64,000 bases of DNA, taken from the NCBI GenBank assembly GCA_045541975.1, contig JAZQKB010000037.1, forward strand, positions 142,326 through 206,325. Reading direction: 5' to 3'. A program made the position numbers and the translations under genes. Every line of letters starts with the position of its first letter. Within the stretch, counting starts at the first letter, position 1. Below are positions 4,447 to 59,606 of the stretch, piece by piece. This DNA is from Clostridia bacterium (GTDB lineage: Bacteria > Bacillota > Clostridia > UMGS1840). The notes below the pieces were generated by a model, which ran no database searches, was not told where the DNA came from, and saw only the letters and a list, made by a program, of their open reading frames with translations.

Positions 4447-5813
4447 TTAATGAGATAGAATCTTTTCACTATGGGATATATCATCTTCTGAAAATGATTT
4501 TTCCCTTCGATGAAATCATCTGCAATGGTGAAAACGCTGATTTGGATATTTCTTATCAAATCAATGATACTTCAGTAACCGTTACCTGCGGTGAAAGCAT
4601 TCACACAGAGCCATTGATTCAGGATGATGTGCTTCTTACTTTAAAACGCGCCATTTATTTTGTGACGCATGCCAAATTGCCCTTTGGTATTTTAACAGGA
4701 GTACGCCCATCCCAAACGGCACTGAAATTTTCAGAACATGTTACCAGCGGTTTGTCCTCTGTTTATCTGGTTTCGCCCCAAAAGGCAGAAATGATGAAGC
4801 AGTGTGCAGATCAGTTAATAAACACCCGTAAAACACTAACAAAAAAAGAAATTTCTTTATATATTCACATTCCTTTTTGCCCTTCACGATGCGGATACTG
4901 TTCTTTCACATTAGAATATTTAAAACCCTATTCGTTACTGATTGACGATTATTTTGTTGCATTACTTCGGGAAGTAAGAGCTGTTTTGCAAACTGTTTCG
5001 GAATGTAAACTTAGCTTAAATTCTGTCTATATCGGCGGGGGAACACCTACCGTGTTAACCGAGAACCAGTTAGAAGAGCTGATTGGAACAGTTTTTTCTT
5101 ATCAAACTCCCAAGGAGTTTTCGGTGGAGGCAGGACGGGCAGACACGGTAACGCAAGAAAAACTTGCCGTGTTGTCTCAAATGGGGGTAACCCGGATTAG
5201 TATCAATCCTCAAACCTTAAATCAGGCAACTCTTGACAGAATCGGAAGACGGCACACTGTTACCGAATTTCTAAAAGCTTATGAGTTAAGCCGCAAGTTT
5301 TCCTTTGATATTGTCAATACCGATTTAATTGCGGCACTTCCCGGGGAAAGTTTTTTAGATTTTAAATATTCTTTAGATGGAATCCTGTCTTTATCACCTG
5401 AGCACGTCACCGTGCATACCTTATGTAAAAAACGAACTGCCGACCTTCGGTTGCAAAACGAGAAGGAGCAGTTTTTGGAAGCGGAAAAAATGCTTCAGTA
5501 TTCTTATGAAGCGTTAGCTGATTCTTACGAACCATACTATATTTACCGCCAAAAAAATGCAGTTGCAGGTTTGGAAAACATTGGATTTATGCGAAACAAA
5601 AAGGTATGTAGATACAATATTTTTATGATGGAGGAGATTTCATCTGTCATAGCGGTTGGAGCAGGAGGTACCTCCAAGCTGACCGATTTTGCAACAAAAA
5701 AACCGTTTTCTAAACTGCGCACCGATAAGCAACCGGAACGGTATATGAAAGATTTAGACGAAATTATTTTAGAAAAACAAAACTTTTTAAGAGAAGGAAG
5801 CCATCTTCTTTAA
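4431..5813 (+). CDS. hemZ: Radical SAM coproporphyrinogen dehydrogenase-like protein (HemZ type)
   Basis: It has a CPSRCGYCSF radical-SAM cluster motif, a HemN-like core and the long N-terminal extension typical of clostridial HemZ. It overlaps the upstream gene by 16 nt. Confidence 0.75.
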   Translation: MVVNLINEIESFHYGIYHLLKMIFPFDEIICNGENADLDISYQINDTSVTVTCGESIHTEPLIQDDVLLTLKRAIYFVTHAKLPFGILTGVRPSQTALKFSEHVTSGLSSVYLVSPQKAEMMKQCADQLINTRKTLTKKEISLYIHIPFCPSRCGYCSFTLEYLKPYSLLIDDYFVALLREVRAVLQTVSECKLSLNSVYIGGGTPTVLTENQLEELIGTVFSYQTPKEFSVEAGRADTVTQEKLAVLSQMGVTRISINPQTLNQATLDRIGRRHTVTEFLKAYELSRKFSFDIVNTDLIAALPGESFLDFKYSLDGILSLSPEHVTVHTLCKKRTADLRLQNEKEQFLEAEKMLQYSYEALADSYEPYYIYRQKNAVAGLENIGFMRNKKVCRYNIFMMEEISSVIAVGAGGTSKLTDFATKKPFSKLRTDKQPERYMKDLDEIILEKQNFLREGSHLL

Positions 5814-5833
5814 CCCATCAAGGAGGAATTTTT

Positions 5834-6367
5834 GTGAACATTTGGCACGATATGAGGGACGAGAGAATTACTCCCGAACGGTTTTCTGCAGTCATCGAGA
5901 TTGAAAAAGGCGGCAAAAACAAATACGAATTGGATAAAGAAACCGGTCTTTTAAAATTAGACCGTGTGCTGTATACTTCCACTCACTATCCGGCAAACTA
6001 TGGTTTTATTCCAAGAACCTACGCTCAGGACGGTGACCCGCTGGACGTGTTGGTACTGTGTACTGAAGGTATTATGCCCATGACGGTGGTGGAATGTTAT
6101 CCCATTGGGGTTATCCGTATGATTGATGACGGTGCTGTTGATGAGAAAATTATCGCAGTATGTGAAAACGACCCTTATCACAATTCCTTCCGCGATGTGT
6201 CGGAATTGCCCAATCATTTATTTCACGAAATCAAGCATTTTTATGAAGTATATAAAATGCTGGAGTATAAAGAAACCATTGTGAATATGGTGGAAGGTGC
6301 AGACGTGGCAAAACAGGTAATTGCAGACTGCATCGAAAACTACAAAAAAGAATTTTTAGCAAAGTAA
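5834..6367 (+). CDS. ppa: Inorganic pyrophosphatase, family I
   Basis: The translation contains IEIEKGGKNKYELDKETG...YPANYGFIP...DGDPLDVLVL, the canonical soluble PPase signature. It has a GTG start after GGAGG. Confidence 0.92.
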   Translation: MNIWHDMRDERITPERFSAVIEIEKGGKNKYELDKETGLLKLDRVLYTSTHYPANYGFIPRTYAQDGDPLDVLVLCTEGIMPMTVVECYPIGVIRMIDDGAVDEKIIAVCENDPYHNSFRDVSELPNHLFHEIKHFYEVYKMLEYKETIVNMVEGADVAKQVIADCIENYKKEFLAK

Positions 6368-6388
6368 ATGACAAACATGGAGAGCATT

Positions 6389-7591
6389 ATGAAAAATTTA
6401 TTGGTAGCCCAGTCCGGCGGTCCCACTGCCGCCATTAACGCAAGTTTAGCAGGTGTCATCAGCGGTGCCCAAAAAGAAACAACGATTGATAAAATTTACG
6501 GTGCTGTATACGGAATTGAAGGCGTGTTAAACGATCACTTAGTGGAACTTAACAATATTGATTTAGATATTTTAAAACAGACTCCGGCAGCATATTTAGG
6601 TTCCTGCCGTAAGAAGTTGCCGACGGAATCTGACAATCCGGAAATTTATCAGCAGATTTTTTCTTATTTTTCTGAAAAAAACATTGGCTATTTTCTCTAT
6701 ATTGGCGGAAATGACTCCATGGATACTGTTTCCAAATTGTCTGACTATGCCAAAGAACATCACTTGGATTTAAAAATTATTGGTGTGCCCAAAACCATTG
6801 ATAACGATTTAGCAATCACAGATCATACACCTGGATTTGGATCTGCTGCAAAATATGTGTCAACCACGGTAGCAGAAATTGCAGAAGACAGTATGGTATA
6901 TGATTTGAAATCTGTTACCATTGTGGAAATCATGGGGCGTCATGCAGGTTGGTTGACCGGTGCCGCCGTTCTGGCAAGGAATGAAAGCCGTATGGCACCG
7001 CATTTGATTTATTTGCCGGAAGTATCGTTTATAAAAGAACAGTTTGTATCAGATATCCAAGCTTTGTTTGACAAAGGGATCCATCAGGTGATTGTTGCCA
7101 TATCCGAAGGTATTCACGATGAAAAGGGAACCTTCATTTGCGAAGGTGCAACCAGTGCTACCGATTCCTTTGGTCATGCCATGTTAAGCGGTGCGGGGAA
7201 AGCACTGGAAAACTTGGTAAAAGCAGAACTTGGCTGTAAGGCAAGAAGCGTGGAATTGAATGTTTGTCAGCGTTGTGCGGGGCATCTGTTATCCGAAACA
7301 GATATTGACGAAGCTTTTGCCATCGGCGAAGCGGGGGTACGGCAGGCTGCCTTAGGGCATAGCGGAGAAATGATGGTGTTTGAACGCCTCTCTGATACGC
7401 CCTATGAAATCAGTATTTCTTCCGCAGATATTCATAAGAGTGCCAATGTGGAAAAAGGTGTTCCCACAGAGTGGATTGTCAACGGCAACGATGTAACCAA
7501 GGAACTTGTTACTTACCTAAAACCGTTGATTTTAGGAGAAGTTTCTGTGGCTTTTGATGAAAACGGCTTACCAAAACATTTACATAGATAG
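6389..7591 (+). CDS. pfp: 6-phosphofructokinase, pyrophosphate-dependent type
   Basis: It has the PFK fold (QSGGPTAAINAS). GGNDS (Asp at the E. coli Gly104 position) and PKTIDND (Lys at the Gly124 position) form the PPi-type signature. The start is uncertain: ATG 6368, 6377 or 6389. Confidence 0.8.
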   Translation: MKNLLVAQSGGPTAAINASLAGVISGAQKETTIDKIYGAVYGIEGVLNDHLVELNNIDLDILKQTPAAYLGSCRKKLPTESDNPEIYQQIFSYFSEKNIGYFLYIGGNDSMDTVSKLSDYAKEHHLDLKIIGVPKTIDNDLAITDHTPGFGSAAKYVSTTVAEIAEDSMVYDLKSVTIVEIMGRHAGWLTGAAVLARNESRMAPHLIYLPEVSFIKEQFVSDIQALFDKGIHQVIVAISEGIHDEKGTFICEGATSATDSFGHAMLSGAGKALENLVKAELGCKARSVELNVCQRCAGHLLSETDIDEAFAIGEAGVRQAALGHSGEMMVFERLSDTPYEISISSADIHKSANVEKGVPTEWIVNGNDVTKELVTYLKPLILGEVSVAFDENGLPKHLHR

Positions 7592-7603
7592 GAATTACGC
7601 AAA

Positions 7604-8329
7604 ATGTATCAGGATTTTTCATATTACTATGACCGATTTGCCTATGACATTGATTATGGCAAATTTTATCGGTACTACAAGAAAATATTTGAAAAATTTT
7701 CTCTGGATCCCAAACTCATATTAGATATCTGTTGCGGTACGGGAACCTTAACCCGACTGATGGCAAAAGATTATGAGATGATTGGAGTAGACTACTCCTG
7801 GGAAATGCTGGATGTTGCCAGAGCAAAAGACCCTGATGCCACCATTTTATACTTGAATCAGTCTATGACCGATTTCGAGCTTTACGGTACGGTAGATGCC
7901 TGCTATTCCTCCTTGGACAGCGTGAACTACCTTTTAGAACAAGAAGATTTAAAAAAACATTTTAAATTAGTAAAAAACTATTTAAATCCCAACGGATTAT
8001 ACATTTTTGATATTTCCACCATTTATAAATTCCGCCATATTTTGGGGAATAACACATTTACCGATGAAACGGAAACTGAAATGTTTATTTGGCAGAATAC
8101 CTATGAAGACCGACTTTTGACAATGGATTTGGATATTTTTTACCGTCAGGAAGACGATTCCTACAAACGGATATCAGAAACCCACTACGAAAGAGGATAC
8201 ACGGTATCAGAAATCAAAAAAGTTGCGGAACAATGCGGTTTTTTGGTGGAAGGTGTATATGATGAATTTAGTTTGAAACCCGCTCATTCAAAAAGCGAAC
8301 GGATATTTTTTGTGATAAGGAGCATTTAA
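7604..8329 (+). CDS. Class I SAM-dependent methyltransferase
   Basis: It has the ILDICCGTGTLT motif I (GxGxG-like) and a Rossmann-fold pattern, and is 241 aa long. Confidence 0.8.
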   Translation: MYQDFSYYYDRFAYDIDYGKFYRYYKKIFEKFSLDPKLILDICCGTGTLTRLMAKDYEMIGVDYSWEMLDVARAKDPDATILYLNQSMTDFELYGTVDACYSSLDSVNYLLEQEDLKKHFKLVKNYLNPNGLYIFDISTIYKFRHILGNNTFTDETETEMFIWQNTYEDRLLTMDLDIFYRQEDDSYKRISETHYERGYTVSEIKKVAEQCGFLVEGVYDEFSLKPAHSKSERIFFVIRSI

Positions 8330-8332
8330 ACC

Positions 8333-9736
8333 GTGATAGAATTTGTTTCCAAAGATACGATAGAAACCCAAAAAGAATATATGAAAAATGTCCGCTTAAA
8401 AAACGAGGGGACTAAGAAAACCGCTGTGGTTGTTACATACGGCTGTGCTCAGAATGAAACCGATTCGGACAAGCTTTATGCGATGCTTTTTGAGATGGGC
8501 TACCAAAAGGGTGACGACGAAAAAAATGCCGACCTTGTGATTTATAACACCTGTTCTGTTCGTGAAAATGCGGAAGTGAAGGTGTATGGTAAGGTAGGTA
8601 CCCTAAAGGCGAAAAAGAAAAAAAATCCCGATATGGTTATTGGTGTTTGCGGATGCTTAATGCAGCAGCCTCATGCCAGCGAGCGAATCAAAAAGACCTT
8701 TCCTTTTGTGGATATGGTGTTTGGTACGCACGTTATCCATGAGTTTCCAAAAATGTTGCACCATGTGTTAACCGAAAGGGAACGGGTTTTCTCGGTAGAT
8801 TCTGTGGACGGTGTTATTGCAGAGGGGGTTCCCGTTGTTTACGACAAGTGGTATAAAGCATCCATTCCCATTATGTACGGTTGCAACAATTTCTGTACCT
8901 ATTGTGTGGTCCCTTATACCCGTGGCAGAGAAAGAAGTCGTAAATCCGAAGACATTTTAAACGAAATTCATATGCTTTGCAAAAAAGGATTAAAAGAAGT
9001 TACCTTACTTGGTCAAAATGTAAATTCCTACGGCAAAGATTTGGAAAATGATTTAGATTTTCCCGATTTGCTATCTGCCATATGCGAAATTGACCAGATC
9101 AAAAGAATCCGTTTTGTGACCTCTCATCCCAAGGATTTAACCGATAAATTAATTGCAGTCATGGGAGAAAACAAAAAGATTTGTAATAGCTTACACTTAC
9201 CATTTCAGGCGGGGAATAACCGTGTATTAGCTGAAATGAACCGCCGTTATACCAGAGAGGATTATTTGACTCTGGTATCCAAAATCAGAAAGGCAGTTCC
9301 CGATATTGCCTTAACTTCTGATGTTATCGTAGGGTTCCCGGGCGAAACCCAAGAAGAGTTTTACGATACCTTGTCTTTAATCCGTGAGGTTCGTTTTGAT
9401 AACCTGTTTACTTTCATCTATTCTCCCAGAAAAGGTACGAAAGCGGCATTAATGGATGACTCCAGAACCTATGAAGAAAAACTTAAAAACTTTAACGAGC
9501 TTTTAGAAGTGCAAACCGAAATTTGCAGAGAAGCCAACGAAGCATACTTAAATCATACCTACGAAATTATTGACGAAGGGTTAAGCAAAAATAATCCTCT
9601 GATGCGGCAGGGAAGAACCACCACCAATAAGGTGATCAACTACAAAGCAAAAACCGACGTATCGGAAGGTGAGTTTGTAACGGTAAAAGTTACCGAAGTG
9701 ATGTCCTGGTCACTTGTGGGTGAGCAGGAATGTTAG
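8333..9736 (+). CDS. miaB: tRNA-2-methylthio-N6-dimethylallyladenosine synthase
   Basis: It has a UPF0004 N-domain (TYGCAQNE), a radical SAM CNNFCTYC motif and a TRAM C-domain. It has a GTG start. Confidence 0.93.
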   Translation: MIEFVSKDTIETQKEYMKNVRLKNEGTKKTAVVVTYGCAQNETDSDKLYAMLFEMGYQKGDDEKNADLVIYNTCSVRENAEVKVYGKVGTLKAKKKKNPDMVIGVCGCLMQQPHASERIKKTFPFVDMVFGTHVIHEFPKMLHHVLTERERVFSVDSVDGVIAEGVPVVYDKWYKASIPIMYGCNNFCTYCVVPYTRGRERSRKSEDILNEIHMLCKKGLKEVTLLGQNVNSYGKDLENDLDFPDLLSAICEIDQIKRIRFVTSHPKDLTDKLIAVMGENKKICNSLHLPFQAGNNRVLAEMNRRYTREDYLTLVSKIRKAVPDIALTSDVIVGFPGETQEEFYDTLSLIREVRFDNLFTFIYSPRKGTKAALMDDSRTYEEKLKNFNELLEVQTEICREANEAYLNHTYEIIDEGLSKNNPLMRQGRTTTNKVINYKAKTDVSEGEFVTVKVTEVMSWSLVGEQEC

Positions 9737-9757: not shown

Positions 9758-12364
9758 ATGCAGATAGAAAAATTATCACCGATGATGCAGCAGTATTTCC
9801 AAATCAAAAAAGATTACGAAGATACATTGTTGTTCTTTCGGTTAGGCGATTTTTATGAAATGTTTTTCTCGGATGCCATCACCGCATCCCGTGAACTGGA
9901 AATTACCTTAACAGGCAGAGATTGCGGTCAGGAGGAACGTGCACCTATGTGCGGTGTTCCGTATCACAGTGCCGAAACTTATATTTCCAAACTGATCAAA
10001 AAAGGCTATAAAGTTGCTATTTGTGAGCAGGTCACAGATCCTAAAGCCGCAAAGGGAATTGTGGAACGGGCAGTTGTTCGTATTATCACACCCGGTACCT
10101 TTTCCGACACCAATGCGCTGGATGAAAAATCCAATCACTATCTTGCATCTGCATATATTACCAAAAAAGGGGCTGGAGTTACCTTTGCCGATATTACCAC
10201 GGGCGATGTGTCTACCACCGAATTTACGGGAGCAGATTTTATTTCTCATTTGACCAGTGAACTGGTAAAATATGCACCTGCAGAAATTTTAGTGAATGCT
10301 GAAGCCTTGATTCATAAAACATTTCTTTCTTCCGTGAAAGAAAGAATTAATACCCGTTTTGAAACGATGGAGGATTCCTTATATTCTTTCTCCAGTGTGG
10401 AAGAAAATTTATCCAAACGTTTTGATGCTTTTTGGGAGAAAAAAGATACTTTAATCAAAAAAGAGCTTTCCTATTTTTCCTTAGCGGTTTGTCTTTACTA
10501 TATTGACAAAACCCAGAAAACTGAGCTTCGTCATATTACAGAGTTTGATTATTACGATACCAAAAGCTTTTTAGAGATTGACGATTGCGCTAAACGAAAT
10601 TTAGAACTTACAGAAACCATGCGGGATAAAAAACGGCAGGGTTCCTTATTTGGTGTTTTGGATGAAACCAAAACTTCCATGGGCGCCCGAATGTTAAAAC
10701 GCTTTATTGAAAAACCTTTGGTAAACCGCACAGCAATTGAACGTCGGTTAGATGCGGTGGAAGAATTAACCCGTAATCAGCCGGATGCAGATGCTATGCG
10801 TACCTACTTAAAAGACATCCGCGATGTGGAACGCCTATTATCTAAAATCTCTTTAAAAACCGTGAATGGCAGAGATTTACTTGCACTTCGTGATTCCTTC
10901 CGGGTATTGCCGCAATTAAAAGATTTGGTAGGTCAATTTAACACTTCTTTATGGAAACAGATGTATCAAGACTGGGATTCTTTGGAAGATATTTTCTCAG
11001 AAATTGATGCTTCCATTTCCGAGGATGCCCCCTTAACCATCCGAGAAGGGGAAATCATCAAAGACGGTTATCACGAAGAGATTGATAAAATCCGTGCAAT
11101 GAAGAAAAACAGCAAAACCATTCTGCTGGATTTGGAAAACAGAGAACGGGAAAAAACCGGCATTGCCAAATTAAAAACCGGCTACAACAAAGTATTCGGC
11201 TACTATATCGAAGTTACCAAGTCTTATCAGGATTTGGTGCCTGACTATTTTATCAGAAAGCAAACCTTAGCCAACTGTGAGCGTTATATCACAGGGGAAT
11301 TAAAAGAAATTGAAGAAGTGCTGTTAAGTGCGGAAGAAAAAATCACCGAGCTGGAATATCAAGTGTTCTGCCAGATTCGGGAAATGATTTTCAAAAACTC
11401 CGAACGAATCAAAAAGACAGCTGATCTGGTTAGTTACTTAGATGTTTTGTGCTCCTTCTATGAAACGGCATTAAAACACAATTATGTGAAACCGGAATTT
11501 AACGCAGGCAATCAGATTGAAATTTTAGACGGCCGTCATCCTGTGGTAGAGCAGGCAAGACGGGATGTTTTGTTTGTGTCAAATGATACGAAACTCACCG
11601 AAAAGGAACATTTCGCCATTATTACCGGGCCTAATATGGCAGGTAAATCCACCTATATGCGTCAGGTTGCCTTAATCTGCATTATGGCGCAGATGGGTTC
11701 CTTTGTGCCTGCAAAATTCGCTTCTTTAGCGGTATTGGATAAAGTATTCACCCGTGTGGGCGCATCCGATGACCTAGCTATGGGGCAGTCCACTTTTATG
11801 GTGGAAATGACAGAGGTATCCACCATTTTAAAAAATGCCACGAAAAACAGTCTGATTATTTTAGACGAAATTGGCCGTGGTACCAGCACCTATGACGGTT
11901 TGTCTATTGCCTGGGCAGTGGTGGAATATATTTGTGAAAAAATCGGAGCCAAAACGTTATTTGCAACCCATTATCACGAGCTGACTCAATTGGAAGATAA
12001 AATGAGTCCTGTGAAAAACTACTGTGTTGCTGTGAAAAAGCGTGGAGATGATATCACGTTTTTACGCCGTATTATTGAAGGCGGTGCGGATGATAGCTAC
12101 GGGGTGGAAGTTGCGAAACTGGCAGGAATCCCTAATCAGGTCATTAAACGTGCTCAGGAACTGGTGCGTGACTTAGAAGGGGATAAAACCGAAATGAGAA
12201 TCCCTCCTGCAACGGTTATGGAGGAAGAAGAGAACCAGTCCTTTGCAGGCTTATTATCTATGAATCTGGTAGCAGAGCTCCAGAAGACTGACGTTACCAC
12301 CCTAACTCCTTTAGAAGCATTAAACCTTTTAAATCACTTAGTAAACGAAGCCAAAAAAATCTAG
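9758..12364 (+). CDS. mutS: DNA mismatch repair protein MutS
   Basis: The N-terminus is TPMMQQY...FFRLGDFYE. It also has the Walker A GPNMAGKST and the TFMVEM and THYHEL motifs. Confidence 0.97.
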   Translation: MQIEKLSPMMQQYFQIKKDYEDTLLFFRLGDFYEMFFSDAITASRELEITLTGRDCGQEERAPMCGVPYHSAETYISKLIKKGYKVAICEQVTDPKAAKGIVERAVVRIITPGTFSDTNALDEKSNHYLASAYITKKGAGVTFADITTGDVSTTEFTGADFISHLTSELVKYAPAEILVNAEALIHKTFLSSVKERINTRFETMEDSLYSFSSVEENLSKRFDAFWEKKDTLIKKELSYFSLAVCLYYIDKTQKTELRHITEFDYYDTKSFLEIDDCAKRNLELTETMRDKKRQGSLFGVLDETKTSMGARMLKRFIEKPLVNRTAIERRLDAVEELTRNQPDADAMRTYLKDIRDVERLLSKISLKTVNGRDLLALRDSFRVLPQLKDLVGQFNTSLWKQMYQDWDSLEDIFSEIDASISEDAPLTIREGEIIKDGYHEEIDKIRAMKKNSKTILLDLENREREKTGIAKLKTGYNKVFGYYIEVTKSYQDLVPDYFIRKQTLANCERYITGELKEIEEVLLSAEEKITELEYQVFCQIREMIFKNSERIKKTADLVSYLDVLCSFYETALKHNYVKPEFNAGNQIEILDGRHPVVEQARRDVLFVSNDTKLTEKEHFAIITGPNMAGKSTYMRQVALICIMAQMGSFVPAKFASLAVLDKVFTRVGASDDLAMGQSTFMVEMTEVSTILKNATKNSLIILDEIGRGTSTYDGLSIAWAVVEYICEKIGAKTLFATHYHELTQLEDKMSPVKNYCVAVKKRGDDITFLRRIIEGGADDSYGVEVAKLAGIPNQVIKRAQELVRDLEGDKTEMRIPPATVMEEEENQSFAGLLSMNLVAELQKTDVTTLTPLEALNLLNHLVNEAKKI

Positions 12365-29075: not shown

Positions 29076-29546
29076 ATGGAAAAAACAAACGCAATGCGTA
29101 TTTTAGAAAAGCAAAAAATTCCGTATGATGTGGAAACTTATGATGCTTCCGACGGCGTGATAGACGGGGTGTCTGTTGCCGGAAAAATCGGGCAGGATCC
29201 TAAATTTGTATATAAGACTTTAGTGACGCAGGGAAAATCCAAGAATTATTTTGTGTTTGTGATTCCAGTAGCTTGTGAGTTGGATTTAAAAGCAGCTGCA
29301 AAATCCGTAGGCGAAAAATCTGTAGAAATGATTGCTGTAAAAGATATCAATAAAATCACCGGTTATATTCGTGGCGGGTGTTCTCCTGTGGGAATGAAAA
29401 AACAGTTTCAGACCGTGATTGATGAATCCGCAAAAGAATTAGAATATTTCTATGTCAGCGGCGGAAAAATTGGACTGCAACTGAAAGTAAATCCCGTATC
29501 TTTGGCAGAACTCATCCACGCGGATTTTTCCGCAATTGCTTTTTAG
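29076..29546 (+). CDS. ybaK: Cys-tRNA(Pro)/Cys-tRNA(Cys) deacylase YbaK
   Basis: The translation has TNAMRILEKQKIPY...YKTLV...GYIRGGCSPVGMKK, which is the YbaK family pattern. Confidence 0.88.
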   Translation: MEKTNAMRILEKQKIPYDVETYDASDGVIDGVSVAGKIGQDPKFVYKTLVTQGKSKNYFVFVIPVACELDLKAAAKSVGEKSVEMIAVKDINKITGYIRGGCSPVGMKKQFQTVIDESAKELEYFYVSGGKIGLQLKVNPVSLAELIHADFSAIAF

Positions 29547-29552
29547 CCCACT

Positions 29553-29571
29553 CTTGACACGAACTTTGTCG
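29553..29571. repeat. Island left-boundary motif CTTGACACGAACTTTGTCG
   Basis: Its first 10 nt are the exact reverse complement of 31743-31752. Positions 29554-29571 recur directly at 31918-31934 (15/18). Confidence 0.6.
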
Positions 29572-29595: not shown

Positions 29596-30414
29596 ATGGA
29601 CTCTATCAAACTATCAACAAAAGTTAGTTCTGATGAAAGAATAATTTCAACAAAAGATGCTATTAAGAATATATCTTTTGATCTAGAAAAACTAGGCGTA
29701 TACTTGGCGAGTATGCATCAATTATATGATTATAATGCAATGACATCTTCAATAAGCAATGCTCTTGACGAGTTTAGTAATGCTCTTATCAACGTAGGTT
29801 GCAATAAGGAATATGTTGCTGCTTATAAAAAGTGGGGAAATTTTGGTTGGTCATTTAATACAAATGTAAGTAAAAAGTTTTTTCTTACTGCTCCAAATTC
29901 TTTAGAAGAAGCTGATTCCATTATGCATGAGTATTGCAACTCGGAAACAATAACAAAAATGATGGAAAAACTAAAATCTGCCGGTGTTAACGAAAAAGAT
30001 TTGGAAGAGGCTTATTTTGATTATGATAATCGACAATATAAATCATCTGTTATGCTGCTATTTAGTTTGCTTGATCAACAGTTAATCAAAAGAAAATTCT
30101 TTAAAGAAGATGGTCGTTTAAAAACTGGGGCAGGTGTTATCGGAGAATTGAAAAAAAGCAAAAAACAACACAAAGAAAGCACACATTTACATTATATACA
30201 ATTCACTTTAATCATTTATTGTTTGATTAAACTGTTTGAGAGTAGTGAAAACTTTGAAATAGAGCCATTTGTTATTAATAGAAATTTTTTGATTCATGGA
30301 ATGAGTAACAGAGAAGTAAACGAATGTGATTGTCTAAAGGTTTGGTCTGCGTTATATAGTTTTGTAGTTGTTTATCCTGAACTTGAAAAAGAGATTTTAT
30401 CAAATGCTATTTAA
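29596..30414 (+). CDS. Hypothetical protein with C-terminal HEPN-like R-x4-H motif (island gene A, 272 aa)
   Basis: ATG 29596 follows GAAAGGA. The track ORF from 29536 is read-through from the ybaK stop region. The protein is predicted to be all-helical and has INRNFLIHG (R229-H234, nt 30280-30297). I recognise no other family. Confidence 0.6.
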   Translation: MDSIKLSTKVSSDERIISTKDAIKNISFDLEKLGVYLASMHQLYDYNAMTSSISNALDEFSNALINVGCNKEYVAAYKKWGNFGWSFNTNVSKKFFLTAPNSLEEADSIMHEYCNSETITKMMEKLKSAGVNEKDLEEAYFDYDNRQYKSSVMLLFSLLDQQLIKRKFFKEDGRLKTGAGVIGELKKSKKQHKESTHLHYIQFTLIIYCLIKLFESSENFEIEPFVINRNFLIHGMSNREVNECDCLKVWSALYSFVVVYPELEKEILSNAI

Positions 30415-30435
30415 AAAAACAAAGGAGATGTAATC

Positions 30436-31716
30436 ATGGGATTATTTGGGCCCTCAAAAAAAGAAAAAGTATTGCAGGCAGAAGTGGAAAGATTAAGTAG
30501 TTTGATGTTGCCTGAACATAGGGAAATTGATTCCCTTAATAAACAAATCGAAGTATTAAAAGCAGAAATAACAAACTTAGAAAAGACAATTGATGTTGAC
30601 CAAAAGAAGATTACTGATTTAAAAGCTAATATCAATACTTTGAATCATGAAATATTAGAGAAGAAAAAACAAATATCAATTTTCGATGTCGATATTGATG
30701 CTCAAGAATATGGTTTATACAAGCCGACTTTTGAATTTGCGAATTCAGACTTATATAAGGATAAATTAAAGGAATTGAGAGACAGACAAAAAGAATGTAT
30801 AAAAAATGATTCTGCAGCTCTTGGCAGTACTAATTGGACTGTTGATGGTAGTCAGGCAAAGGGACGTGCAATGGTTAAAGATAATAAGAAACTATTGCTC
30901 CGAGCTTTTAATGTTGAATGCGATGATATTGTTGCAAATGTTAAAGTATCAAATTTGGATAAATCTATCGAACGAATTAATAAGATAAGTGAACAAATTT
31001 CAAAGCTTGGAAAAACGATGTCAATTTCCATTACCCCTGGTTATATAAGATTGAAAATTGAAGAAGTAAAATTAGCATTGGATTTCCAACAAAAGAAACA
31101 AGAGGAAAAAGAGACGCTTAAAGAACTGCGAGCACAAGAAAGAGAAGAAGCAAAAGTTTTAAAAGAAATAGAAGAAGAAAGAAAACGCTTAAAGAAAGAA
31201 CAAACACATTATCAAAATGCTTTAGATAAAATTTTGAGTCAAATTGAAAAAAATGGTGAAACTGATGATTTGCTTGAGAAAAAAGCTCAGTTAGAAGCAC
31301 AAATTAATGATACAGCAGCTGCAATAGAAAATGTGGATTATCGTGAAGCAAACAGAAAAGCAGGTTATGTATACATAATAAGTAATATTGGTGCTTTTGG
31401 TGAAAATGTATATAAAATAGGCATGACGAGACGATTAGACCCACAGGAAAGAGTTGATGAACTTGGTGATGCATCTGTACCATTCAATTTTGATGTGCAT
31501 GCATTGATTTTTACAGATGATGCTCCTGGATTAGAAACTGCTTTACATAACGCTTTTGAATCAAGAAAATTAAATAAAATTAATTCTCGACGTGAATTTT
31601 TTGCAGTTTCTCTTGATGAAATCAAAGCGGAAGTTAGAAAGAATTTTGACAAAACAGTAGAATGGATAGATGTTCCAGAAGCAGAACAATACAGACAATC
31701 TTTATTGATTAAATAG
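30436..31716 (+). CDS. Coiled-coil / DUF4041 / T5orf172 (GIY-YIG-like) nuclease-domain protein (island gene B, 426 aa)
   Basis: An RBS AAAGGAG precedes it. The N-terminal heptad region spans aa ~10-80. The DUF4041-like core includes EYGLYKPTFEF...WTVDGSQAKGRAMV...LLLRAFNVECD. The C-terminal part, GYVYIISN...VYKIGMTRR...DELGDASVPFNFDVH...REFF, is T5orf172/MUG113-type. Confidence 0.8.
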   Translation: MGLFGPSKKEKVLQAEVERLSSLMLPEHREIDSLNKQIEVLKAEITNLEKTIDVDQKKITDLKANINTLNHEILEKKKQISIFDVDIDAQEYGLYKPTFEFANSDLYKDKLKELRDRQKECIKNDSAALGSTNWTVDGSQAKGRAMVKDNKKLLLRAFNVECDDIVANVKVSNLDKSIERINKISEQISKLGKTMSISITPGYIRLKIEEVKLALDFQQKKQEEKETLKELRAQEREEAKVLKEIEEERKRLKKEQTHYQNALDKILSQIEKNGETDDLLEKKAQLEAQINDTAAAIENVDYREANRKAGYVYIISNIGAFGENVYKIGMTRRLDPQERVDELGDASVPFNFDVHALIFTDDAPGLETALHNAFESRKLNKINSRREFFAVSLDEIKAEVRKNFDKTVEWIDVPEAEQYRQSLLIK

Positions 31717-31739: not shown

Positions 31740-31786
31740 TACTCGTGTCAAGTCCATACAATTTAAAACATTAGTTTGCCGATTTT
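31740..31786 (+). repeat. 47-bp dispersed repeat, copy 1
   Basis: TACTCGTGTCAAGTCCATACAATTTAAAACATTAGTTTGCCGATTTT matches 59493-59538 with 2 mismatches and 1 indel. Confidence 0.85.
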
Positions 31787-31917
31787 GATATTTACATATA
31801 CTGTCGGGAGCGAGAAAATTCGGTATTCTCGCGGGTTCTAAGGAAAAGTATTAAAGGAAAAACAGTGAGAAAATTAAGGAAAAATTAGTAGGTCCTATTA
31901 TTCACTGTTCTCCTGAC

Positions 31918-31934
31918 TTGACAAGAACTTGACG
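31918..31934. repeat. Island right-side direct copy of the boundary motif (TTGACAAGAACTTGACG)
   Basis: It aligns to 29554-29571 with 1 gap and 2 mismatches. Confidence 0.5.
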
Positions 31935-32015: not shown

Positions 32016-32084
32016 TATTTTTCTGAGTATGGAACAAATTTCCTTTTGATGCCGTCTAACTGGATAGAAAGGGAGGCGATAAAT

Positions 32085-32315
32085 TTGAAAAAAATATGTT
32101 GTATTCTTATATTACTTTTTTTAAGTACCTTATCGACTACTTCCGCTCAGGAAAAACTACTTCAGTTTCCGTCTACCGTACAAGAATCGGTTCTTACACA
32201 CGAAGTCATTCAGGATGATTTGGTATATCACGGTGAAGAACACGAGTTTCATGATCTGCTCTACCGTGGAGAAGAAATCACAATTGTAAAACTATCCGAA
32301 AACGAATGTGAATAA
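32085..32315 (+). CDS. Small secreted acidic protein (76 aa), unknown function
   Basis: TTG 32085 lies 8 nt after GGGAGG. The signal peptide is KKICCILILLFLSTLSTTSA|QE. The mature part is rich in E/D/H. A terminator follows. Confidence 0.5.
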   Translation: MKKICCILILLFLSTLSTTSAQEKLLQFPSTVQESVLTHEVIQDDLVYHGEEHEFHDLLYRGEEITIVKLSENECE

Positions 32316-32330
32316 TGTTTCATAAGAATA

Positions 32331-32370
32331 AAAAACAAAAACCCGAATGCATATTGCATTCGGGTTTTCT
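32331..32370. terminator. Bidirectional terminator
   Basis: The perfect palindrome ACCCGAATGCA TAT TGCATTCGGGT is flanked by an A-run and a T-run, between convergent genes. Confidence 0.85.
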
Positions 32371-59492: not shown

Positions 59493-59538
59493 TACTCGTG
59501 TCAAGTCTATAAAATTTAAAAATTAGTTTGCCGATTTT
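59493..59538 (+). repeat. 47-bp dispersed repeat, copy 2
   Basis: TACTCGTGTCAAGTCTATAAAATTTAAAAATTAGTTTGCCGATTTT is nearly identical to 31740-31786 and in the same orientation. Confidence 0.85.
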
Positions 59539-59606
59539 AACATTTTGTTTTAGGGTATTATATAAACAGATGAGTTTATTGGTATCGTTATGAAAGGAGA
59601 AATCAT

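Follow-up and report, generated by a model that had tools for sequence, protein, structure and literature searches.

SNIPE is the closest described relative of the protein considered here. The E. coli system was reported as PD-lambda-1 (Vassallo et al. 2022, PMC9519451) and has since been characterized and renamed (bioRxiv 10.1101/2025.11.03.685801; Saxton et al., Nature 2026, PMC13190303). An N-terminal transmembrane (TM) helix keeps E. coli SNIPE in the inner membrane, its GIY-YIG nuclease (E414) cleaves phage DNA at injection, and its DUF4041 domain binds DNA and probably also the tape measure protein (PMC13190303). The protein associates with ManYZ, and when its TM helix is removed it goes to the nucleoid and becomes toxic (PMC13190303). 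Here we describe gene B, a SNIPE-like gene in a 64,000-nucleotide stretch of DNA from a Clostridia bacterium (contig JAZQKB010000037.1), which we call the window. We consider it probable that gene B encodes a stand-alone SNIPE anti-phage nuclease of the recognized TM-less subclass and that a small mobile cassette brought it into the genome of an uncultured gut Clostridia organism.

SNIPE distinguishes self from non-self by location, with the nuclease stationed at the site of phage DNA entry, the membrane. A TM helix is missing from roughly one third or more of the homologues found in nature, among them those of the highly abundant gut Clostridia clade to which gene B belongs. Thus, how the host chromosome escapes cutting becomes a question within a freshly described mechanism.

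Architecture and family membership of gene B

The product of gene B matches the PADLOC profile for PD-Lambda-1 (PDLC03976, E=1.7e-151) over positions 59-472 of 491, so that gene B has no counterpart to profile positions 1-58. It also matches phrog_1847 of the PHROGs collection (E=7e-147). A tblastn search of phage genomes finds homologues in 44 records, including the 500-aa protein named PD-lambda-1 in Escherichia phage PhiR26_1. By BLASTP, this phage protein and gene B share 42% identity across 389 residues (E=2e-96), and the phage protein carries a strong TM helix at residues 5-24, with a Kyte-Doolittle mean over 19 residues (KD19) of 3.37 at residues 6-24. Pfam places DUF4041 (PF13250) at residues 152-207 of gene B, with the match covering positions 1-56 of 56 and thus the full length of the model (E=2.4e-21), and places T5orf172/MUG113 (PF10544/PF13455) at residues 310-402 (E about 1e-17).

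Gene B carries the signature of the GIY-YIG superfamily, consisting of GYVY (G310/Y313), YKIG (K327/G329), R332/R333, E367 and N380. Every one of 138 diverse homologues has G310, Y313, K327, G329, R332, R333 and N380, and at least 90% of them keep E367. Glu414 of the PhiR26_1 protein aligns with E367, and we assume that this protein and published SNIPE (E414) share a residue numbering. The initial annotation, which was made from the sequence without database searches, had pointed out several GIY-YIG-like elements, and these are indeed present (GYVYII at residues 310-315, VYKIGMT at 325-331, RR at 332-333 and RREFF at 385-389). What requires revision is the catalytic position, since E367, and not the Glu of REFF, is the likely catalytic Glu.

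The AlphaFold2 model of gene B, which was built with an alignment of 138 sequences, has a predicted local distance difference test score (pLDDT) of 93 and a predicted template modeling score of 0.72. It exhibits the elongated, mostly helical build with a globular DUF4041 domain and a terminal nuclease that is expected of SNIPE. Residues 1-7 are disordered, helices span residues 8-22, 26-91, 201-273 and 277-305, and a globular domain (residues ~104-200) and an alpha/beta nuclease domain (residues 310-425) complete the fold. The long coiled-coils proposed in the initial annotation agree with the helices at residues 26-91, 201-273 and 277-305. Its reference to DUF4041 nucleases that are tethered to the membrane was likewise correct, the tethered protein being SNIPE/PD-lambda-1. 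A Foldseek search of the model against the Protein Data Bank (PDB) yields local matches alone, to coiled coils and to Slx1, with no global match (best E=0.31). The N-terminal coiled coil, which we call the adapter, weakly matches gp26, the tail needle of P22, as a coiled coil (E=0.0046). Judging from its PADLOC and phage homology and its conserved GIY-YIG residues, gene B is a complete SNIPE homologue that lacks the anchor only.

Judged by hydropathy alone, gene B has no N-terminal single-pass TM helix. The maximum KD19 over the whole protein is 0.83, far short of the value of about 1.6 that usually marks a TM segment, and the longest run free of D/E/K/R/H/N/Q is 11 aa. Cys accounts for 0.5% of the residues, and none of it lies in the N-terminal part of the protein, which excludes a lipobox. 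These values bear out an earlier description of the N-terminus as polar, in a protein with no hydrophobic stretch of 18 aa or more. The open reading frame (ORF) opens at the first start codon past the upstream stop, and therefore no N-terminal extension is possible. Among the close homologue clusters listed, 117 of 120 share the MGLFG start and two more have M-F-G or an upstream extension, which indicates that the start is real. This conserved start, together with a neighboring gene located directly upstream (gene A), rules out a start-codon or truncation artifact.

The absence of a TM helix does not exclude gene B from the SNIPE family, because the defining paper counts TM-less homologues among its members. 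Its authors report that, of 474 SNIPE homologues, 59% have one TM helix, 7% have two and 34% have none (PMC13190303). The TM-less examples in their Extended Data Fig. 10 comprise a PH-domain protein, a DUF4428 protein and one with neither a TM helix nor a globular domain, and they argue that such homologues reach the membrane by other means (PMC13190303). When 1.84 billion cluster representatives were searched exhaustively with HMMER, 4235 relatives of gene B were recovered, and an N-terminal hydrophobic segment is present in 79 of the best 150 of these and absent from the other 71. The curated 138-sequence alignment contains 76 TM-bearing and 62 TM-less representatives, and more than 8000 clusters are related to gene B at E<=1e-5. 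Close relatives among the 120 matches listed are 76-95% identical to gene B, are 425-436 aa in length (with one cluster at 412 aa), and derive from gut and rumen Clostridia metagenomes. TM-less SNIPE is a large, already published class, and gene B is an ordinary member of it.

The N-terminal GLFG plus basic motif

Gene B begins with a short hydrophobic GLFG element that is followed by a cluster of basic residues. The listed close clusters with an MGLFG start mostly read MGLFGPSKK, and related starts occur in TM-less representatives from many phyla (MGLFG/N/D, MALFG, MDLFG, MGFFDFLKR, MALFDFFKK, MSILDIFRIK and MGIFKNK). In actinobacterial forms that have a long Pro/Trp-rich extension, GLFG-RK is internal and is located exactly where the coiled coil starts. 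When scored with one regular expression, the motif is found in 33 of the 62 TM-less representatives versus only 4 of the 76 TM-bearing ones, and all four of the latter matches fall within the TM helix itself. The same expression matches about 2% of control ORFs (13 of 673). In 43 MGLFG-type proteins from genome loci, whose selection did not involve residues 6-11, conservation is 0.83 for these residues, 0.54 for residues 12-90 and 0.88 for the nuclease domain. This short hydrophobic-then-basic element appears to be strongly constrained at the place where other members have a TM helix.

The motif may replace the TM anchor, either through peripheral membrane contact or through docking. That it tracks with the absence of a TM helix is possibly a new point. 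The searched text of the SNIPE paper (PMC13190303) describes no conserved N-terminal GLFG plus basic motif and contains no occurrence of the word 'amphipathic', and a literature search for 'MGLFG' yielded nothing relevant.

By homology to SNIPE, gene B would be expected to cleave incoming phage DNA, probably siphoviral, during genome injection. E. coli SNIPE attacks the nucleoid when its TM helix is deleted. For gene B, we tentatively propose that the protein does not move freely through the cytoplasm and is either retained at the membrane or close to it, or kept in an auto-inhibited state. In the subclass represented by gene B, the GLFG plus Lys-rich motif and the coiled coil would stand in for the TM helix. 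The suggestion of the initial annotation that gene B is a cytoplasmic variant is unproven.

Several considerations weigh against this interpretation. The motif in the window contains Gly-Pro and has a helical hydrophobic moment of 0.06, and so does not qualify as an amphipathic helix of the classical membrane-targeting type. Gene B has no Pfam match to PspA/ESCRT-III, DivIVA or a known membrane-binding module. Moreover, 29 of the 62 TM-less representatives lack the motif under the regular expression used, and we infer both the localization and the activity of TM-less SNIPE homologues. Finally, A-B pairs recur in six or more contigs, where gene A is as little as 65% identical and 2-25 nt separate the two genes, so some functional coupling of the two genes is conceivable within the subclade of the window.

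An amphipathic helix at the N-terminus of gene B was considered and dropped given the near-zero hydrophobic moment. Likewise, residues 1-11 yielded no sign of a PspA/ESCRT-III-type anchor when examined for PspA_IM30/Snf7 homology or an amphipathic alpha-0 helix.

Two other observations concern the N-terminal region. In one contig with both genes (L097, positions 2033-2263, aligned with 30436-30666 of the window), the first 77 SNIPE residues are 78% identical to those of gene B and the neighboring gene A is 97% identical. Such a pattern would fit a rapid diversification of the adapter coiled coil, or its recombination. In addition, Zn-ribbon N-termini (CxxC...CxxC, DUF4428-like) are present on SNIPE homologues from four loci (L068, L074, L081 and L082) and on P0174. 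Between the Cys pairs of these variants lies a G-L/M-F-L-K/R element, which echoes the GLFG of the plain TM-less class.

An unlikely alternative is that the anchor is provided in trans, such that TM-less SNIPE is recruited by a membrane protein, either a small one encoded by a separate gene or one of the host, and not by its own N-terminus. The association of E. coli SNIPE with ManYZ sets a precedent for such recruitment. Furthermore, TM-less homologues at four loci (L008, L018, L019 and L021) are adjoined by a family of small hydrophobic proteins of ~80 aa, predicted to reside in the membrane and sharing the motif F/W-R-I/F-G-I-G, which could serve as such an anchor. Unrelated single-TM proteins are also encoded 12-32 nt upstream of gene B homologues at L012, L017 and L035. 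However, the ~80-aa family is absent beside gene B in the window, as is any such small membrane-protein gene, and no neighbor family is kept beyond a few loci. A TM protein is encoded immediately upstream at 22 of 80 genome loci, which is about the usual share of membrane proteins, and we therefore rejected adjacent membrane proteins as a general partner.

Gene A, genomic neighborhoods and the mobile cassette

To survey neighbors, all ORFs from 80 species-level genome loci of gene B relatives were clustered. The recurrent neighbors are a tyrosine integrase (26 loci), XRE/CI/LexA-like repressors and ImmA/IrrE peptidases, and a large serine recombinase is located downstream of the gene B homologue in 10 of 11 loci. 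These surroundings are those of a prophage or integrative element at its repressor-to-integrase end, and the related loci are flanked by CI/ImmA-type repressor genes on one side and by integrases or recombinases on the other. No conserved functional partner emerges from the 80 loci, where the recurrent neighbors are all integrases, recombinases, repressors or ImmA, and the arrangement is that of a single-gene system without a conserved partner, as is the case for SNIPE. Gene B is most likely a single-gene defense against incoming phage DNA.

Gene A encodes an orphan protein, for which the ATG at 29596, preceded by the ribosome-binding site GAAAGGAA, is most likely the real start. The protein has no match in Pfam, NCBIfam, PADLOC or PHROGs, and its family consists of 17 clusters (single-sequence query) or 18 clusters (profile) out of 5.8 billion proteins. 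Its AlphaFold2 model is confident and all-helical (pLDDT 81). A Foldseek search with this model against the PDB and BFVD gives no significant match save one uncharacterized Siphoviridae protein, and the sole match from a PDB profile search, to a designer PPR protein, was judged spurious. Near the C-terminus is an invariant R229-N-x3-H234-G (INRNxLxHG) that fits the HEPN Rx4-6H pattern. No Pfam match to HEPN exceeds the threshold, one family member weakly matches HEPN_Apea (E=0.19), and the only hint of a HEPN fold is 2hsb at rank 46 with a probability of 0.25. This profile and fold support is too weak for a HEPN assignment.

We find it quite unlikely that genes A and B constitute a two-gene system, in which B is a genuinely cytoplasmic nuclease and A gives it localization, activation or restraint as a sensor or an antitoxin-like inhibitor. 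Such a system would fit the position of the two genes on the same strand, 21 nt apart, and the recurrence of A-B pairs beyond the window (L007, L010, L087, L093/L094 and L097) with gene A identities of 65-98%. It would also supply the restraint of some kind that the toxicity of TM-less E. coli SNIPE calls for. However, copies of gene B that are 94% and 95% identical to that of the window (L008 and L042) lack gene A in the 6 kb that precede them. Gene A is present at 2 of the 80 loci and missing from the other 78, and its 18 clusters compare with more than 8000 for gene B. Gene A is itself without a TM helix (maximum KD19 of 1.24), and it is found without gene B in at least six other contexts. 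Homologues with 70-71% identity reside in a type IV secretion system conjugative element and in an integrase island, one is beside a Mor gene and one is solitary. The most distant homologues (40-44%) directly follow hsdS in two type I restriction-modification operons, a placement that suggests gene A is a defense gene in its own right.

Because each gene occurs without the other, A and B are separable neighbors. Gene A appears to be a rare gene associated with mobile elements and defense islands that shares a cassette with gene B, and gene B does not appear to need it. Thus, the proposal in the initial annotation that localization or activation of gene B might depend on gene A is unsupported. 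TM-less homologues are usually solitary, with no conserved neighbor at the 80 loci other than mobile-element genes, which also runs counter to that proposal.

It is highly improbable that gene B acts outside of defense, as a structural or chromosome-associated coiled-coil protein (SMC/Rad50-like) or as a homing-type GIY-YIG endonuclease that mobilizes the cassette in which it lies, since its weak SMC/Rad50 matches, echoed by homologue annotations such as 'chromosome segregation ATPase', score tens of bits versus cut-offs of hundreds and cover the coiled coil alone, Pfam detects no ATPase domain, and its homology to an experimentally validated defense protein is full-length.

The GC content is 30-33% at 29.5-32 kb of the window versus about 40% in the flanks. 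A contig from another Clostridia metagenome-assembled genome (L007) carries, at positions 5117-7465, the segment 29552-31901 of the window at 97% nucleotide identity, and this common segment includes gene A, gene B and a downstream repeat. The high identity of this A-B module amid completely different flanks suggests that the cassette was transferred horizontally not long ago. Its insertion site in the window immediately follows the stop codon (29544-29546) of a ybaK-like tRNA-editing gene.

The repeat is ~190 bp in length and has the ends ACTYGTGTCAAGTC ... GACTTGACACGAGT, with TTGACA boxes that face outward. A partial copy is present at 59493-59545 of the window. In L007, copies are located on both sides of A-B (4943-5131 and 7282-7465), whereas L008 has three (7571-7757, 8780-8969 and 9891-10078) that are situated between unrelated genes with a spacing of ~1.1-1.2 kb. 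L042 carries a copy at 7282-7466, and a metagenome scan revealed 34 further loci with the repeat (L099-L132). Some copies contain a nested insertion or keep the 5' 70 nt alone. The element looks like a repeat that resembles a miniature inverted-repeat transposable element, or like a recombination-prone intergenic repeat, that marks the cassette boundaries. We also considered whether the repeat is a structured RNA, which is unproven given that an Rfam search returned no family and that RNAalifold analysis of 16 copies detected two covarying pairs only.

Two features lie beyond the repeat. An 89-aa ORF with a signal-peptide-like N-terminus (MKKICCILILLFLSTLSTTSAQ) is located at 32046-32315 on the plus strand and has no family match. 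A strong hairpin terminator at 32337-32369 was scored on the minus strand, and its palindromic stem would fold on the plus strand as well.

Table 1. Positions of gene B, its domains and associated features. Coordinates refer to the window unless a locus handle is given.
Feature	Coordinates	Strand	Description
Gene B	30436..31716	+	SNIPE/PD-lambda-1-family nuclease, TM-less class; intact ORF, 426 aa, starts MGLFGPSKKEKVLQAEVERLSSLMLPEHREID
Ribosome-binding site of gene B	30421..30427	+	AAAGGAG, 8 nt before the ATG; read from sequence
N-terminal motif	30436..30468	+	MGLFGPSKKEK, residues 1-11; short hydrophobic GLFG, then basic cluster; conservation, AlphaFold2
N-terminal helices	30457..30708	+	Residues 8-22 and 26-91; variable adapter coiled coil, lowest conservation of the protein; AlphaFold2
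Globular DUF4041 domain	30745..31080	+	Residues ~104-215 (Pfam match 152-207); PF13250, AlphaFold2
Long helical hairpin linker	31036..31350	+	Residues 201-273 and 277-305; AlphaFold2
T5orf172/GIY-YIG nuclease domain	31363..31641	+	Residues 310-402; GYVY, YKIG, R332/R333, E367, N380; Pfam, conservation
Gene A	29596..30414	+	Orphan protein, all-helical, 272 aa; precedes gene B by 21 nt on the same strand
Left cassette boundary	29553..29564	+	CTTGACACGAAC, 12-nt remnant of the repeat 3' end; directly after the ybaK-like stop
~190-bp repeat	31741..31928	+	~14-bp terminal inverted repeats ACTCGTGTCAAGTC ... GACTTGACAAGAAC; right cassette boundary, immediately 3' of gene B
Gene A family members	L089 1825-2652; L090 848-1669		Same orphan family as window 29596-30414
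~80-aa hydrophobic family	L008 7317-7559; L018 5714-5974; L019 4008-4268; L021 545-805		Upstream of SNIPE in three, downstream in one

Comparison with known systems

The residual novelty of this locus is modest and resides in the N-terminal motif, in an orphan neighbor with defense-island habits, and in a portable cassette bounded by repeats. A bolder interpretation, which we regard as doubtful, takes one of two forms. Either the GLFG plus basic motif is an unrecognized, portable signal for targeting the membrane or the injection site that replaces the TM helix in approximately one quarter of SNIPE homologues, or, in the Clostridia subclade of the window, gene A (a possible HEPN-like RNase) and TM-less SNIPE form a coupled two-gene cassette that is mobilized by the 190-bp element. 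The conserved GLFG-KK start offers a specific target for mutational tests.

Proteins of the ESCRT-III/PspA/Vipp1 group have N-termini such as MGLFGK... (CHMP3), MGLFDR... (Vipp1) and MGIFSRF... (PspA). Gene B resembles them in its N-terminal Gly-Leu-Phe, its basic residues and its long helical hairpin, although the likeness extends over a five-residue motif and is an analogy only. Unlike these proteins, gene B has no PspA_IM30/Snf7 Pfam match, and it contains the Gly-Pro break and has a low hydrophobic moment. The GIY-YIG nucleases Slx1 and I-TevI share with gene B the GIY...YIG strands and the catalytic positions occupied by Arg, Glu and Asn, and the local Foldseek matches of gene B to Slx1 (4xm5, 7cq2 and 7cq4) have probabilities of 0.6-0.85. 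Gene B differs from both in that its nuclease belongs to the T5orf172 subfamily and is fused to DUF4041 and coiled coils.

The correspondence with E. coli SNIPE/PD-lambda-1 is far more extensive. Both proteins have the order coiled coil, DUF4041, helical hairpin and GIY-YIG/T5orf172 nuclease, both are encoded by a single gene on mobile DNA, and the catalytic Glu is kept (E367 corresponds to E414). Unlike the E. coli protein, gene B has no N-terminal TM helix and begins with MGLFGPSKKEK. Its host is a Gram-positive-type gut Clostridia organism, and therefore the ManYZ/LamB context of E. coli SNIPE does not apply. Among the TM-less homologues described by Saxton et al., gene B fits the class that has neither a TM helix nor a globular N-terminal domain. 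Those authors ascribe membrane targeting to coiled coils that resemble DivIVA or type III secretion system ATPases and to PH domains, whereas the corresponding candidate in gene B is the GLFG plus basic motif.

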